From IMG/VR virus record IMGVR_UViG_2585427758_000006: a DNA stretch of 20,920 nucleotides, one strand, 5' to 3'. Below, piece by piece: positions 1,192 through 20,920 of this stretch. The notes under the pieces were generated by a model. That model was not told the DNA's origin, made no database searches, and saw only the letters and a list, made by a program, of their open reading frames with translations. The position numbers and the translations under genes were made by a program. Source of the stretch: a virus. Taxonomy: Duplodnaviria; Heunggongvirae; Uroviricota; Caudoviricetes. Position 1 is the first letter of the stretch. Every line of letters begins with the position of its first letter.

Positions 1192-1557
1192 ATGGCTGAG
1201 CTTCGTACACTCCAGAGCAGAATCAAAACACTGAATACCCGACGGGTGAATATTCTGAAGGGTGAACAGCGTCGTGTCAGTGGCAGTGCACGTGTTTCCC
1301 TCAAGCGTCATATCTGGCTCAGGGACGCCGGGCAGTGCCGTCTCTGTGGTCGTGTGGTTGACCTCTGTGACAGTGAACTCGATCACCGAATTGCACTTCA
1401 GTTCGGTGGTGGTAATGAGGAGACGAATCTCTGGACGCTCTGTACCGAATGCCATCGACAAAAGTCTGCTCGTGAAGCGGCGAGTGATATGCCGGACCCG
1501 ACGCTGCCGGAGGTGTCCGGAGGTAGTGGCAGAGAGGACGACATCATCGGACTGTAA
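1192..1557 (+). CDS. Phage HNH endonuclease (packaging-associated)
   Basis: HNH motif CRLCGRVVDLCDSELDHRIALQFGGGNEETNLWTLCTECHRQK; sits directly upstream of the cos/terminase region as in HK97-like phages. Confidence 0.85.
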   Translation: MAELRTLQSRIKTLNTRRVNILKGEQRRVSGSARVSLKRHIWLRDAGQCRLCGRVVDLCDSELDHRIALQFGGGNEETNLWTLCTECHRQKSAREAASDMPDPTLPEVSGGSGREDDIIGL

Positions 1558-1647
1558 CCCGACCCCGGGGGGGTATCATCCGGCGTAAAAAACGATCGCT
1601 TTGGACACCGCGCCCCCTCTCACGCAGAGAAAAAATTCCTGTTTCAG

Positions 1648-1778
1648 GGCAGTTAACATGTTAACTGGCTGCCCGGGCATTTTTGCGGTTTTTATCTTTA
1701 TTATTCAGTTTGTTGTGCGAAAAAAATGTTAACTGGCTTTTTCAGCAAATGTTAACCAGGCAGCAGTTAACATTTGCG
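1648..1778. promoter_or_regulatory. Putative cosB-like terminase recognition region: four GTTAAC-core repeats plus an AT-rich possible IHF bend
   Basis: Palindrome GTTAACATGTTAAC at 1652-1665; ATGTTAACTGGC repeated at 1658-1669 and 1726-1737; inverted pair AAATGTTAAC (1748-1757) / GTTAACATTT (1765-1774); AT-rich tract 1680-1720. Located about 70-200 bp upstream of the terminase small subunit. Confidence 0.45.
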
Positions 1779-1847
1779 GCATGAGACGCCGGGAAAAATG
1801 GGCTGAACCATACCCGGCTGAGTGCGTTCTGGACCCGGGAGGAGGCT

Positions 1848-2411
1848 GTGCTGACAACGCAAAAACGAAAATTTGCGCTGGCGCTCATGTCCGGGAAAAA
1901 CAAAACAGCGTCAGCCATTGCCGCCGGTTATTCGGCGAAGACAGCCAGGGTTAAAGGCTCGCAGCTGGCAAAAGATCCGGAGGTGCTCGCGTTTATAGCC
2001 CGTAAACAGTGCGAGACGGTGGAGGTGGATGAGGTTCCTGTTTACCGGCAGAAAAAATCAGAGCAGGAGGATAAACCCCGTCGCCGTGAGGCGGCTGCAA
2101 TACCACAGCCGGACGAAACAAATCCGGAGATGCCACCGTCCGCGGTGATGTCTCCTGGTATTGAATATATGGAGGATGGTCTTCCCGATCCGGTGAAAGC
2201 CATGGGGCGGATCCTGGTGGAAAACCTCTGCATTGATCCGAAACTGGCACTGGATGCGGCCTGGCGTCTGGCGCAGTTCACGCACCATAAAAAAGGGGAT
2301 ACCGGGAAAAAATCGGCAAAAGGTGACGCCGCGAAAAAAGCGGCTAACCGTTTTGCGGTGCCACCACCACCCCGCCTGGTGGTGAATAATGATAATGAGG
2401 GCAACGGATGA
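1848..2411 (+). CDS. Terminase small subunit (P27-like family)
   Basis: GTG start at 1848 with GGAGG 5-9 nt upstream; N-terminus MLTTQKRKFALALMSGKNKTASAIAAGYSAKTARVKGSQLAKDPEV is typical of small terminase; stop overlaps the large-subunit start (ATGA). Confidence 0.8.
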   Translation: MLTTQKRKFALALMSGKNKTASAIAAGYSAKTARVKGSQLAKDPEVLAFIARKQCETVEVDEVPVYRQKKSEQEDKPRRREAAAIPQPDETNPEMPPSAVMSPGIEYMEDGLPDPVKAMGRILVENLCIDPKLALDAAWRLAQFTHHKKGDTGKKSAKGDAAKKAANRFAVPPPPRLVVNNDNEGNG

Positions 2412-4069
2412 TACCTGTGTGGAGCACGGCCTGCCCGGACTGGGCAGAGCGCCTGAAAAAGGGGCTGTCGATTATTCCGGCTCCGATTTATCCGGAGCAG
2501 GCCGCACATGCCCTGGCGATTTTTAAACAACTGCGGATTGTGGATGCACCGGGCAGCCCGACGTTCGGGGAGTCCTGCGCACATTGGGTGTTTGACCTGG
2601 TGGCGGCCCTGTTTGGCTCCTACGATGCGCAGACCGGTGTACGCCATATCAAGGAAGTTTTTATCCTTATCCCCAAGAAAAACAGCAAGTCCACGCTGGC
2701 TGCCGGGATCATGATGACGGCGCTGTTACTGAACTGGCGGCAGGCGGCGGGCTACACCATTCTGGCCCCGACCGTGGAGGTGGCGGCTAACGCCTTCAAC
2801 CCTGCCAGGGATATGGTACGACGGGACGATGATCTGGATGACCTCTGTCAGGTGCAGACACATATCCGGACCATCACCCACAGGGTGACGGACACCACCC
2901 TTAAGGTGGTGGCTGCCGATCCGAATACGGTATCCGGTATCAAGTCCGTGGGGACGCTGATTGATGAACTGTGGTTATTTGGCAAGCAGTACAAAGCGGA
3001 GGACATGTTACGTGAAGCCATAGGCGGCCTTGCCTCCCGCCCGGAAGGGTTTGTGGTGTATACGACCACCCAGTCGAATGAGCCGCCAGCCGGGGTGTTC
3101 AGACAGAAACTGCAGTACGCCCGGGATGTCCGTGACGGCAAAATTCATGATCCGCACTTTCTGCCGGTGATATTTGAACACCCTCCTGAAATGGTGGAAA
3201 GCGGGGCTCACCTGCTGATGGAAAACCTCGCCATGGTCAATCCGAATCTCGGCTATTCAGTGGATGAGGCCTTTCTGTACCGGGAGTACCGTAAAGCCCG
3301 GGAAGCCGGTGAAGAGACATTCCGGGGGTTCATGTCAAAACACGCCAATGTGGAAATTGGTCTTGCCCTGCGCTCTGACCGCTGGGCGGGGGCTGATTTC
3401 TGGGAAGAGCAGGGCCGTTGTATCAGCCTGGACGATATCCTGCGTCGTGCTGATGTGGTGACGGTGGGGATTGACGGCGGAGGGCTGGATGATCTGCTGG
3501 GGATGTATGTGATTGGGCGTGACCGGGAGACCCGCGAATGGCTGGGCTGGGGCCATGCCTGGGCGCATGAAACCGCGGTGGTCCGACGGAAGAGCGAGGC
3601 GTCCCGGTTTCAGGATCTTGTTGCCTGTGGAGATATGACCATTGTCCGGCGTGTCGGGGATGACACGGCGGAAGTGGCGGAATATGTGCGTCGCATTCAT
3701 GAGGCTGAGTTACTGGACCATATCGGTATTGACCCGTCAGGGGTGGGGCAGATTCTGGATTCACTGGCGGAAGCCGGGATCCCCGACGGAATTGTGGTGG
3801 GGATAAGCCAGGGCTGGAAACTGGGCGGGGCCATTAAAACCACCGAGCGCAAACTGGCTGAAGGGGTGCTGGTGCATGGTGACCAGCCCCTGATGGCCTG
3901 GTGTGTCGGCAATGCCCGGGTGGAGCCTAAAGGTAACGCCATTCTTATCACCAAACAGGCCAGCGGACGGGGAAAAATTGACCCGCTGATGGCGCTGTTC
4001 AATGCGGTCTCCCTGATGTCCCTTAACCCGGAACCGAAAAAGAAAGAATATGCGGTTTTTTTCATATAA
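2408..4069 (+). CDS. Terminase large subunit
   Basis: 553-aa ORF translationally coupled to the small subunit, in the size and position expected for TerL; the family assignment is by recall of prophage TerL sequences, without a motif check. Confidence 0.9.
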   Translation: MIPVWSTACPDWAERLKKGLSIIPAPIYPEQAAHALAIFKQLRIVDAPGSPTFGESCAHWVFDLVAALFGSYDAQTGVRHIKEVFILIPKKNSKSTLAAGIMMTALLLNWRQAAGYTILAPTVEVAANAFNPARDMVRRDDDLDDLCQVQTHIRTITHRVTDTTLKVVAADPNTVSGIKSVGTLIDELWLFGKQYKAEDMLREAIGGLASRPEGFVVYTTTQSNEPPAGVFRQKLQYARDVRDGKIHDPHFLPVIFEHPPEMVESGAHLLMENLAMVNPNLGYSVDEAFLYREYRKAREAGEETFRGFMSKHANVEIGLALRSDRWAGADFWEEQGRCISLDDILRRADVVTVGIDGGGLDDLLGMYVIGRDRETREWLGWGHAWAHETAVVRRKSEASRFQDLVACGDMTIVRRVGDDTAEVAEYVRRIHEAELLDHIGIDPSGVGQILDSLAEAGIPDGIVVGISQGWKLGGAIKTTERKLAEGVLVHGDQPLMAWCVGNARVEPKGNAILITKQASGRGKIDPLMALFNAVSLMSLNPEPKKKEYAVFFI

Positions 4070-17968: not shown

Positions 17969-20920
17969 ATGGGAAAAGGTGGCGGTAAGGCACACACGCC
18001 TCGTGAGGCGAAGGATAATCTCAAATCCACGCAGATGATGAGTGTGATTGATGCGATTGGTGAGGGACCGATAGAAGGTCCGGTGAAGGGACTGCAGAGT
18101 ATTCTGGTGAACAAAACCCCACTGACGGACACGGACGGCAATCCCGTGATACACGGTGTGACGGCGGTCTGGCGCGCCGGGGAGCAGGAGCAGACACCAC
18201 CGGAAGGCTTTGAGTCCTCCGGAGCTGAAACCGGACTGGGCGTGGAAGTGACGAAGGCAAAACCGGTGACGCGCACCATTACGTCCGCGAACATTGACCG
18301 CCTGCGGGTTACCTTCGGGGTGCAGTCACTGGTGCAGACCACGTCAAAGGGCGACCGTAATCCTTCCTCTGTCCGGATTCTGATTCAGTTACAGCGTAAT
18401 GGCCGCTGGGTGACGGAAAAGGACGTCACCATTAACGGCAAGACCACCTCACAGTTCCTGGCCTCGGTGATTCTGGATAATCTGCCTCCCCGGCCCTTTA
18501 ACATCCGGATGGTCAGGGAGACGGCGGACAGCACCACGGACCAGCTGCAGAATAAGACGCTGTGGTCGTCATACACCGAAATCATCGATGTGAAACAGTG
18601 CTACCCGAACACGGCCATTGTGGGGCTGCAGGTGGATGCGGAGCAGTTCGGCGGCCAGCAGATGACGGTGAACTACCATATCCGCGGTCGCATCATCCAG
18701 GTGCCGTCAAACTATGACCCGGAAAAACGCACGTACAGTGGTATCTGGGACGGCAGTCTGAAACCGGCATACAGCAACAACCCGGCCTGGTGCCTGTGGG
18801 ACATGCTGACTCACCCGCGCTACGGCATGGGAAAACGTCTGGGGGCGGCGGATGTGGACAAGTGGGCGCTGTATGCCATCGGGCAGTACTGCGACCAGAC
18901 GGTCCCGGATGGTTTCGGGGGGACCGAGCCGCGGATGACCTTTAATGCGTACCTGGCACAACAGCGTAAGGCGTGGGACGTTCTCAGTGATTTCTGCTCT
19001 GCGATGCGCTGTATGCCGGTATGGAACGGTCAGACGCTGACGTTCGTTCAGGACCGCCCGTCGGATGTGGTGTGGCCGTACACCAACAGCGATGTGGTGG
19101 TGGATGATAACGGCGTGGGATTCCGCTACAGCTTCAGTGCCCTGAAGGACCGGCACACGGCGGTGGAGGTGAATTACACCGACCCGCAGAACGGCTGGCA
19201 GACCTCCACGGAACTGGTGGAAGACCCGGAAGCCATACTGCGCTACGGACGCAACCTGCTGAAGATGGACGCGTTCGGCTGTACCAGCCGCGGTCAGGCC
19301 CACCGTGCCGGACTGTGGGTGATAAAGACCGAACTGCTGGAAACGCAGACGGTGGATTTCACGCTCGGGTCTCAGGGGCTGCGGCACACACCCGGTGACA
19401 TTATTGAAATCTGTGATAATGACTATGCCGGGACCCTGACCGGCGGACGTGTCCTGTCCATTGATGCTGCCACCCGCACCCTGACGCTGGACCGTGAGGT
19501 TACCCTGCCGGAGACAGGTACATCGGCGGTGAACCTGATTAACGGCAGCGGTAAGCCGGTGAGTGTGGACATCACCGCACACCCCGCGCCGGACCGGATA
19601 CAGGTCAGTACCCTGCCTGATGGTGTGGAGACATACGGGGTGTGGGGATTCTCCCTGCCGTCACTGCGCCGTCGCCTGTTCCGCTGTGTCTCCATCCGGG
19701 AAAACACGGACGGCACCTTTGCCATCACGGCGGTGCAGCACGTACCGGAAAAAGAAGCCATCGTGGATAACGGTGCCCGCTTTGAGCCGCAGTCAGGTTC
19801 CCTGAACAGCGTCATCCCACCGGCAGTGCAGCACCTGACGGTGGAGGTGAGCGCAGCTGACGGCCAGTATCTGGCGCAGGCGAAATGGGACACGCCGCGG
19901 GTGGTGAAGGGTGTGCGCTTCAGTCTGCGCCTGACCAGTGGTAAGGGAACGGATGCCAGACTGGTGACCACCGCCATCACCGCAGACACGGAGCACCGTT
20001 TCAGCGGCCTGCCGCTCGGGGAATACACCCTGACGGTGCGGGCGATAAACAGCTATGGCCAGCAGGGTGAACCTGCCACCACCACCTTCCGGATTGCCGC
20101 ACCGGCAGCACCGTCGCGGATTGAGCTGACGCCGGGCTATTTTCAGATAACCGCAACGCCACATCTTGCCGTTTATGACCCGACGGTACAGTTTGAGTTC
20201 TGGTTCTCGGAAAAGCGGATTGCGGATATCAGGCAGGTTGAAACCGCAGCCCGCTATCTTGGCTCGGCGCTGTACTGGATAGCTGCCAGTATCAATATCA
20301 AACCGGGCCATGATTATTATTTTTATATCCGCAGTGTGAATACTGTTGGCAAATCGGCATTCGTGGAGGCTGTCGGTCGGGCGAGCGATGATGCGGAAGG
20401 TTACCTGGATTTTTTCAAAGGAGAAATCGGGAAAACACATCTGGCCCAGGAGCTGTGGACGCAGATTGATAACGGTCAGCTTGCGCCGGACCTGGCTGAA
20501 ATCAGGACGTCCATTACGAATGTCAGCAATGAAATCACGCAGACCGTCAATAAAAAACTGGAAAATCAGAGTGCGGCAATCCAGCAGATACAGAAAGTTC
20601 AGGTTGATACAAATAATAACCTGAACAGCATGTGGGCCGTGAAACTGCAGCAGATGCAGGACGGACGCCTTTATATTGCGGGTATCGGTGCCGGTATTGA
20701 GAATACGCCAGCAGGAATGCAGAGTCAGGTGCTGCTGGCGGCAGACAGGATTGCGATGATTAATCCTGCGAATGGCAACACAAAGCCGATGTTTGTTGGT
20801 CAGGGCGATCAGATATTTATGAATGAAGTGTTCCTGAAATATCTGACGGCTCCCACCATTACCAGCGGCGGTAATCCTCCGGCATTTTCCCTGACACCGG
20901 ACGGGCGGCTGACGGCGAAA
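17969..20920 (+). CDS. J: Tail tip / host specificity protein J, 5' portion (continues beyond window end)
   Basis: ATG at 17969 with RBS aggggaagg; [39 protein letters not shown]... closely resembles lambda gpJ from the first residue. Frame is open to the end of the window, so it is absent from the complete-ORF track. Confidence 0.9.

Follow-up and report, generated by a model that had tools for sequence, protein, structure and literature searches.

The window analysed here, the whole 20,920-bp stretch of viral DNA, carries between positions 1564 and 1777 what we read as a cos site of the HK97 type, cut with the help of an HNH endonuclease to leave 10-nt 3' ends. An array of GTTAAC motifs within it is predicted to be a cosB-equivalent recognition site for the oligomeric small terminase (TerS) encoded downstream. 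We put the probability of this reading at about 0.7. The motifs are invariant where their surroundings vary, they hold a fixed position relative to the cut, and they accompany one kind of TerS across Proteobacteria.

Gene context and prevalence

An HNH gene and terS are separated by 290 bp, and the repeats are located within this interval. According to the Pfam matches, the HNH gene stands directly 5' of the cos region and terS and terL directly 3' of it, the gene order of HK97-type systems, and genes for a prohead protease-capsid fusion and a portal protein follow on the 3' side of the terminase genes. The product of 1192-1557 is the packaging-associated HNH protein of HK97-type cos systems. 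The features referred to below are listed here, with distances marked + counted from the predicted left end of the packaged DNA.

1192-1557, plus strand: HNH endonuclease gene (Pfam HNH PF01844, E=3.7e-8; homologous RefSeq loci are annotated HNH endonuclease)
1568-1574, plus strand: conserved G-run within the C4G7 tract 1564-1574, an upstream cos element and not the cut site
1603-1618, plus strand: cosN, GGACAC and then the predicted 10-nt 3' cohesive end CGCGCCCCCT (overhang 1609-1618), from homology to mapped ends
1619-1640, plus strand: left-end block with an A-tract (CTCACGCAGAGAAAAAATTCCT), conserved, with hardly any variation in the 49 type-A variants
1650-1667, no strand: proximal box, palindrome CAGTTAACATGTTAACTG with GTTAAC copies 1 and 2, at +32 to +49; the family-wide GTTAA...TTAAC element
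1668-1723, no strand: AT-rich spacer with T5, T5 and A7 tracts, GC 30-42%
1724-1735, plus strand: distal copy 3, AAATGTTAACTG, at +106 to +117; core invariant and kept in the satellite-like element
1745-1756, plus strand: distal copy 4, GCAAATGTTAAC, from the repeat finder; invariant and kept in the satellite-like element
1764-1777, minus strand: distal copy 5, CAGTTAACATTTGC, in the opposite orientation to copies 3 and 4; the satellite-like element is similar only as far as this copy
1848-2411, plus strand: terS, small terminase (Pfam PF03592 Terminase_2), with a ribosome-binding site (RBS) and a GTG start
2408-4069, plus strand: terL, large terminase with ATPase and nuclease (Pfam TerL_ATPase and TerL_nuclease)

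The region is 94-98% identical to phages BP-4795, 2851, 1717 and YYZ-2008 and to many Stx1a, Stx2a and Stx2c prophages, and 1283 of 5426 complete E. coli genomes have the packaging module, frequently more than once. The window prophage is thus of the BP-4795 / phage 2851 / long-tailed Stx type, and its packaging module is a standard and very common lambdoid one. The cos of SfI/SfV belongs to a different module. At the far left of the window, an IS1 fragment with an insB-like ORF (1-570) abuts a fragment of a TonB C-terminal domain (576-818), and a DUF3950 (YlcI/YnfO) gene on the minus strand (950-1210) overlaps the start of the HNH gene, as listed, by 19 nt.

The predicted cut site and left end

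The position of the cut comes from two relatives with mapped virion ends. The Stx1 phage Lys8385Vzw was classified by PhageTerm as a cos phage with 3' cohesive ends CGCCCCCCCT (PMC7946995). It is about 95% identical to the window, with a TerS 94.7% identical, and its record ends in GGACACCGCCCCCCCT and starts with CTCACGCAGAG, also given as CTCACGCAGAGAAAAAATTCC. The Acinetobacter phage fEg-Aba01 is more distantly related and has a TerS of the same family. Its 10-nt 3' cohesive ends, CGCCCCCCAT, described as 'HK97 type', were identified with PhageTerm and confirmed on a heat/anneal restriction gel (PMC7354433); its record ends in GGACACCGCCCCCCAT, annotated as the 3' cohesive end, and starts with CGCACGCACAAAAAAAATTCCC. 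The two junctions fall on the homologous nucleotide, which aligns in the window with GGACAC CGCGCCCCCT before the cut and CTCACGCAGAGAAAAAATTCC after it. Over 1603-1640 the window differs from the mapped Lys8385Vzw junction in one base of the overhang. By homology to these mapped relatives, the cohesive end of the window prophage is predicted to be 1609-1618, with the top strand cut between 1618 and 1619 and the packaged left end beginning at 1619. The relatives thus have defined cohesive ends and not the ends of headful (pac) packaging. Nearly all of the 94 database records matching the region are prophage-derived and run from att to att, so that mapped ends are found only in Lys8385Vzw and, more distantly, in fEg-Aba01; the ends of IMG/VR contigs near the site are uninformative on virion ends. 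The deposited 'terminase' CDS of Lys8385Vzw (185-793) has its start 45 nt before the GTG to which all other TerS N-termini align; that start is probably mis-called, as the aligned GTG follows a GGAGGAGG RBS.

These ends displace one part of the original prediction, which had offered the G/C-rich segment ccccggggggg just after the HNH gene as a candidate nicking site, since by homology the mapped junctions put the overhang about 40 bases downstream of it. The comparison with cos regions of relatives that had been proposed as a check bears out its other part: the repeats do lie in the cos region, on the terminase-gene side of the cut and at a fixed position relative to it.

The G/C-rich segment is nonetheless a conserved part of the cos region. 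In 65 of 78 related loci, a run of at least five G precedes the predicted nick and ends 40-46 nt away from it; the window has 44 nt and HK97 has 43 nt, so that a G-run some 43-45 nt before the end is an upstream cos feature shared with HK97. It is also kept in a satellite-like element of E. coli CH427 (see below) despite diverged surroundings. It may be a contact for terminase or HNH or, as a guess, have a cosQ-like function. The PPompW prophage (LC567818, 1146-2604) shows an IS110-family element, ISEc20, lying directly against the cos G-run at the equivalent of about window position 1570, with G-runs on both sides of the insertion. The order there is Q, three tRNAs, the IS, cos and terS, and the lysis and HNH genes are missing. 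The G-run may be a target for insertion, or the IS may have brought about a deletion, and this prophage should be unable to cut its cos unless HNH is supplied in trans.

The left-end block with its A-tract is conserved across Enterobacterales, Pseudomonas, Burkholderiales and Acinetobacter.

The repeat array

GTTAAC occurs six times in the window where 2.46 are expected by chance, and five of the copies, at 1652, 1660, 1728, 1751 and 1766, are clustered downstream of the cut. The maximum number in any 125-bp span is five, compared with at most two in 2000 mononucleotide shuffles. The repeat finder returns a perfect 18-bp palindrome, CAGTTAACA followed by TGTTAACTG, at 1650-1667, the 12-mer ATGTTAACTGGC at 1658-1669 and 1726-1737, and AAATGTTAAC at 1724-1733 and 1747-1756. 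The pair GCAAATGTTAAC (1745-1756) and GTTAACATTTGC (1766-1777) is inverted, with 12 of 12 bases complementary. The cluster proposed originally is therefore real, with its palindrome, its twofold 12-mer and its inverted pair, but it holds five hexamers and not four. The 12-mer is indeed present twice, although it is not itself the conserved unit: its TGGC tail varies among variants, which leaves (A)AATGTTAAC as the unit that is conserved. The AT-rich tract described among the repeats is there as well, with 30-32% GC at 1675-1749 compared with 55-65% in the flanks, and the spacer 1668-1723 may be bendable DNA.

All five copies fall between +32 and +159. They are thus on the terS side of cosN, the side on which a lambda-type cosB has its repeated elements. 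The match to lambda is one of layout. The IHF consensus (WATCAANNNNTTR) has no match with at most one mismatch in 1558-1847, where there is only the AT-rich spacer between the repeats. A sigma-70 promoter scan of the region returns a single weak match, on the minus strand and made of the motif itself, and we found no terminators and no Rfam match there. Thus no promoter, terminator or Rfam element accounts for the region.

Conservation in the E. coli type and in a terminase-less element

A scan of viral contigs for the cosN core gives 120 loci, a set in which the invariance of cosN is partly built in by the search pattern. Among these, we compared 49 distinct sequences with the architecture of the window, which we call type A. 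Across 1619-1777, none of the 38 motif columns varies, compared with 47 of the 121 others (39%; Fisher p=2.5e-7, a value that overstates independence because the type-A sequences are related).

A more divergent copy is found in E. coli CH427, in an integrated element of about 9.6 kb between yljB and clpS (NZ_CM166357 639961-649600; 9962-19600 in our extract, L006, with the cos copy at about 19161-19335). The element encodes an integrase, an HTH regulator, YlcI/YnfO, an Icd-like protein, a RepA-family helicase and a protease-capsid fusion, and no HNH, terS or terL is found among its genes. Its capsid fusion has no BLASTP similarity to that of the window. In the cos copy, about 230 bp from the end of the element, the G-run is followed by cosN, the A-tract and all five motifs, spaced as in the window. 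Overall identity to the window is 80%, with diverged spacers, and the similarity breaks off just past the last motif. Elements of this type occur in 22 of 5426 E. coli genomes, and a second variant is present in one further extract (L061). By its annotation, the element looks like a cos-type phage satellite of BP-4795-like helpers. In an element without terminase genes, an operator for those genes would be useless and a packaging signal would serve, so that the retention of the motifs there argues for a role in cis.

The small ORF at 1658-1732, MLTGCPGIFAVFIFIIQFVVRKKC followed by a stop, encodes a hydrophobic 24-mer that resembles a small membrane peptide and begins at the ancestral terS start codon. 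We rejected it as a gene. It is frameshifted in two variants (L089 and L100) and stops after four codons in CH427, and being broken in this way it is probably a fossil of the ancestral terS start.

A GTTAA box across Proteobacteria

A scan of viral contigs based on TerS finds almost only near-identical type-A loci. Scanning instead one genome per species with a TerS profile gives 80 loci, from Enterobacterales, Pseudomonas, Burkholderiales, Acinetobacter, Xanthomonas and Alysiella, of which 78 could be anchored on the predicted left end. These species-level loci share a layout consisting of the G-run, a C-rich cut site, CACGC.AGA, an A/T-tract and TTCCC. GTTAA is found within +31 to +52 in 77 of the 78, and 71 have a GTTAA..TTAAC pair or a GTTAAC hexamer in that interval.

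In 70 of the 78 loci, which we call compact, the start codon of terS is at about +39, inside the box, which also overlaps the RBS and 5' end of the gene. The compact box reads GTTA-ATG-GCT-TTA-ACA, and in enterics such as Salmonella phage FSL SP-016 it reads GT(A/T)AAC-ATG-TTA-ACA. The other eight loci are expanded. Their terS starts at +64 to +163, and that of the window, shifted 190 bp downstream of the box, at +230, while the box is still at +33 to +48. Judging from these alignments, the position of the box is tied to the cut and not to the gene.

Several observations bear on what the box is read by. Among the loci with a terS GC content of at least 0.58 (n=45), TTA makes up only 5 of the 567 other leucine codons, yet it is the leucine codon of the box in 36 of the 45. 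A TTA box codon is present in 60 of 70 compact loci compared with 1 of 9 expanded loci including the window, which has CTG (p=1.3e-5). In four Pandoraea and Paraburkholderia loci (L236, L244, L260 and L276), terS begins ATG GCC/GCT TTT AAC (MAFNS) and not ATG GCT TTA ACA (MALT). This shift by one base keeps TTAAC and changes the N-terminus of the protein, which indicates a constraint on the DNA and not on the protein. No compensatory changes between half-sites are found in the 78 loci. The E. coli type has GTTAAC and the Acinetobacter type has direct AAGTTAAAG repeats; at the position of the box, relatives from Acinetobacter and Comamonas show GTTAAA(G) repeated directly, two or three times at intervals of about 11 bp, as in fEg-Aba01 (three direct AAGTTAAA, about 11-13 bp apart) and a Comamonas locus (three direct GTTAAAGC, 11 bp apart). 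Taken together, the rare TTA, the MAFNS shift, the lack of compensation and the direct repeats favour sequence-specific recognition by a protein over an RNA stem.

In the expanded loci, as in the window, extra copies further from the cut are seen near +110 to +150. Three Burkholderiales loci (L267, L290 and L291) carry additional GTTAA(AG) copies 100-165 nt upstream of terS: at +110 and +129 in Paraburkholderia, at +116 in Cupriavidus, and at +118, +129 and +140 in Comamonas. The window has them at +110, +133 and +148. On this comparison, the distal clusters were gained independently in three Burkholderiales lineages, and the expanded loci hint at a preferred spacing of about 75 bp between proximal and distal sites.

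The small terminase as the proposed reader

The N-terminal helix-turn-helix of the window TerS matches PF03592 at residues 2-57 with 35.7 bits (cut-off 26.1), and the protein has no match to any other Pfam family. A single-sequence search gives weak matches to solved structures. A profile of the 41-member family matches solved small terminases over residues 5-69, Pam5 with 2.6e-5 and SF6 (4zc3/3zqp) with about 4e-4. In the window, terS has a GGAGGAGG RBS upstream of its GTG and starts GTG-CTG-ACA.

HK97 provides the informative contrast. Its TerS binds one 15-bp site at +15 to +29 that includes the A-tract, using an arginine clamp, in a cos complex that has been solved structurally (PMC11331095). 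HK97 TerS has no Pfam match and no detectable sequence similarity to the window TerS, and at +33 to +48 HK97 lacks the GTTAA..TTAAC box. Given that HK97 has the upstream cos features, an unrelated TerS and no box, the box appears to go with the type of TerS, and TerL and HNH to go with the G-run and the kind of cut. It is mainly because of this modularity that we infer TerS to be the reader. By analogy with HK97, the conserved A-tract block at 1619-1640 might belong to the TerS site, or might itself be the primary site.

There is precedent for a recognition site built into the start of terS. The pac site of SPP1 overlaps both the RBS and the 5' coding part of gene 1, and synthesis of the terminase is repressed by the terminase itself (PMC6316719). 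SPP1 TerS binds at two regions, and the TerL that it recruits makes its cut in the interval which they flank (PMC6316719). A pac located in the start of terS is close to what the compact loci show.

Proposed mechanism and origin

The proposed site would have three parts: the upstream G-run (1568-1574); cosN, where the concatemer would be cut to leave CGCGCCCCCT; and, on the capsid-first side, the (A)AATGTTAAC array, with an inverted pair at +32 to +49 and a three-copy cluster at +106 to +159. Helix-turn-helix domains of TerS would occupy the proximal pair and the distal cluster, and the AT-rich spacer would be bent between them. TerS bound in this way would position TerL and HNH on cosN and so start packaging, and at the next cos bound TerS would arrest the motor and end it. 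FSL SP-016 and most relatives have the proximal box only. As compact phages manage with it alone, the distal cluster is probably a booster of affinity or efficiency, dispensable in principle.

As to its origin, the window would retain the old terS start (ATGTTAAC at 1658), with a decayed RBS, inside the palindrome. Some 190 extra bases relative to the compact relatives would have brought the three further motif copies, the new GGAGGAGG RBS and the GTG-CTG-ACA start.

A broader scenario joins these observations, and we offer it tentatively, as doubtful in its entirety. GTTAA-N(2-5)-TTAAC at about +33 to +48 would be the universal address label of a large family of HNH-assisted cos phages of Proteobacteria with a helix-turn-helix TerS. 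In most members it would be built into the first codons of terS, forcing the rare TTA even above 60% GC, and it could couple packaging recognition to terS autoregulation. Several lineages, the E. coli Stx-phage group among them, would independently have freed terS and added a second cluster at a distance of about 75 bp, and so have arrived by convergence at a two-part cosB like that of lambda but lacking IHF, and small satellites that encode capsid proteins would spread by copying the whole label.

Alternative explanations

The alternative that survives best, though we consider it unlikely, is that the array is read by a protein other than TerS, such as HNH, TerL, a host architectural protein or the DUF3950 protein YlcI/YnfO, with the motifs either acting within cos or forming an overlapping operator. 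HK97 TerS binds nearer the cut, on the A-tract, and a similar A-tract block is conserved in the window family; a YlcI/YnfO gene lies just upstream in the window and another in the CH427 element; and, at a separation of 8-10 bp, the inverted half-sites would be suitable for any helix-turn-helix or ribbon-helix-helix protein that acts as a dimer. Against these points, the box co-occurs with a Terminase_2 TerS in Enterobacterales, Pseudomonas, Burkholderiales, Acinetobacter and Alysiella, it is missing at +33 to +48 from HK97, where homologous upstream cos features go with an unrelated TerS, and the region has no IHF consensus.

The extra copies might instead be functionless fossils of a duplicated terS RBS and start (..AAACATGTTAACAG..) that pushed terS about 190 bp downstream. 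The motif is indeed the terS start (ATG/GTG TTA ACA) in SP-016 and 55 viral contigs, the window retains the degraded RBS and the dead ORF at 1658-1732, and phages such as SP-016 are viable with the proximal box only. Against this, the motif columns are all invariant where 39% of the neighbouring columns vary. In addition, one copy is inverted, the satellite-like element retains all five copies despite its diverged spacers, and distal clusters occur independently, at similar distances, in three Burkholderiales lineages. We therefore judge a purely fossil array to be quite improbable.

Least probable of all is an RNA hairpin that would control translation by hiding the terS start codon: half-sites do flank the start codon in the compact relatives (GUUA AUG GCU UUAAC) and the SPP1 terminase does autoregulate its synthesis, but the stem would have only five A/U-rich pairs and no Rfam match, the half-sites are invariant with no compensatory change in 78 loci, several relatives have direct and not inverted repeats, and the box stays by cosN when terS moves 60-230 nt and persists in an element without terS.

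Comparison with known packaging systems

Recognition by TerS thus remains the preferred reading, and known systems each resemble parts of it. HK97 (TerS gp1, TerL gp2, HNH gp74) is like the window in having HNH at the right end of the genome and terS and terL at the left, a 3'-protruding end, a G-run 43-44 nt upstream of that end and an A/T-tract after the cut. Like most relatives of the window, it has a short distance from the cut to terS. It differs in its single 15-bp site at +15 to +29, where the window has repeated GTTAA(C) at +32 to +49 and +106 to +159. The 3' overhang of HK97 is given as 10 nt (PMC11331095) or as 12 nt (PMC9410871).

The lambda cosB (R3-I1-R2-R1, bound by gpNu1 and IHF), to which the array had been likened, also has repeats in mixed orientation on the terminase side of cosN, over about 130 bp and with an AT-rich segment between them. 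The likeness holds for this layout but not for the IHF consensus site that defines I1, and it does not extend to the chemistry or the proteins: lambda has 12-nt 5' ends, needs no HNH and uses the winged-helix gpNu1, of another family, whereas the window has predicted 10-nt 3' ends, an HNH helper and a Terminase_2 TerS. Satellites copy or modify cos for packaging (PMC6739421). The PICIs that parasitise lambda replace cosB, whereas the CH427 element keeps an array of the window type.

The G1P of SPP1 and SF6 belongs to the same N-terminal helix-turn-helix family as the window TerS. SPP1 resembles the compact relatives in the overlap of its recognition sequence with the RBS and 5' coding region of the TerS gene, and it resembles what is proposed for the window in its two-part recognition, with sites flanking or next to the cut. 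Unlike the window family, which has defined cohesive ends, SPP1 and SF6 package by the headful from a pac cut, and their motif sequences are unrelated.

The staphylococcal phages phi12 and phiSLT, in the work of Quiles-Puchalt 2014 and Carpena 2016, reportedly have an HNH-dependent cos, and SaPIbov5 is said to carry the cos of its helper together with a capsid homologue, Ccm. In these systems, cos lies between the HNH gene and terS, as in the window, and SaPIbov5, like the CH427 element, is terminase-less, copies the helper cos and has a capsid-type protein of its own. Hosts and sequences differ from those of the window.

Novelty and significance

Published work on a close relative already covers the cos-type packaging of this phage group and its 10-nt end. 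In a literature search of incomplete coverage, which included the overhang sequences and the BP-4795 cos, no paper turned up in which the repeats, the G-run or the family-wide box are described. The array in the window is predicted to be an uncharacterised recognition array for a small terminase at cos, with an unusually clear comparative signature.

The packaging module is found in about a quarter of complete E. coli genomes and in many Stx1 and Stx2 phages, and its cos therefore decides which DNA phages, satellites and cos-bearing plasmids move between strains. The segment of about 1560-1780, with the cut site, the box and the optional distal cluster, is a small fragment directly testable for transduction. 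The cos signature is also a marker of packaging type and of virion ends that can be read for a prophage from sequence alone. Finally, the only DNA-bound TerS of a cos system solved so far is that of HK97, which is unrelated to the window TerS, and loci with one box, a palindromic box, or a box and a distal cluster make up a natural series on how a ring-shaped helix-turn-helix TerS would read DNA in cos systems.
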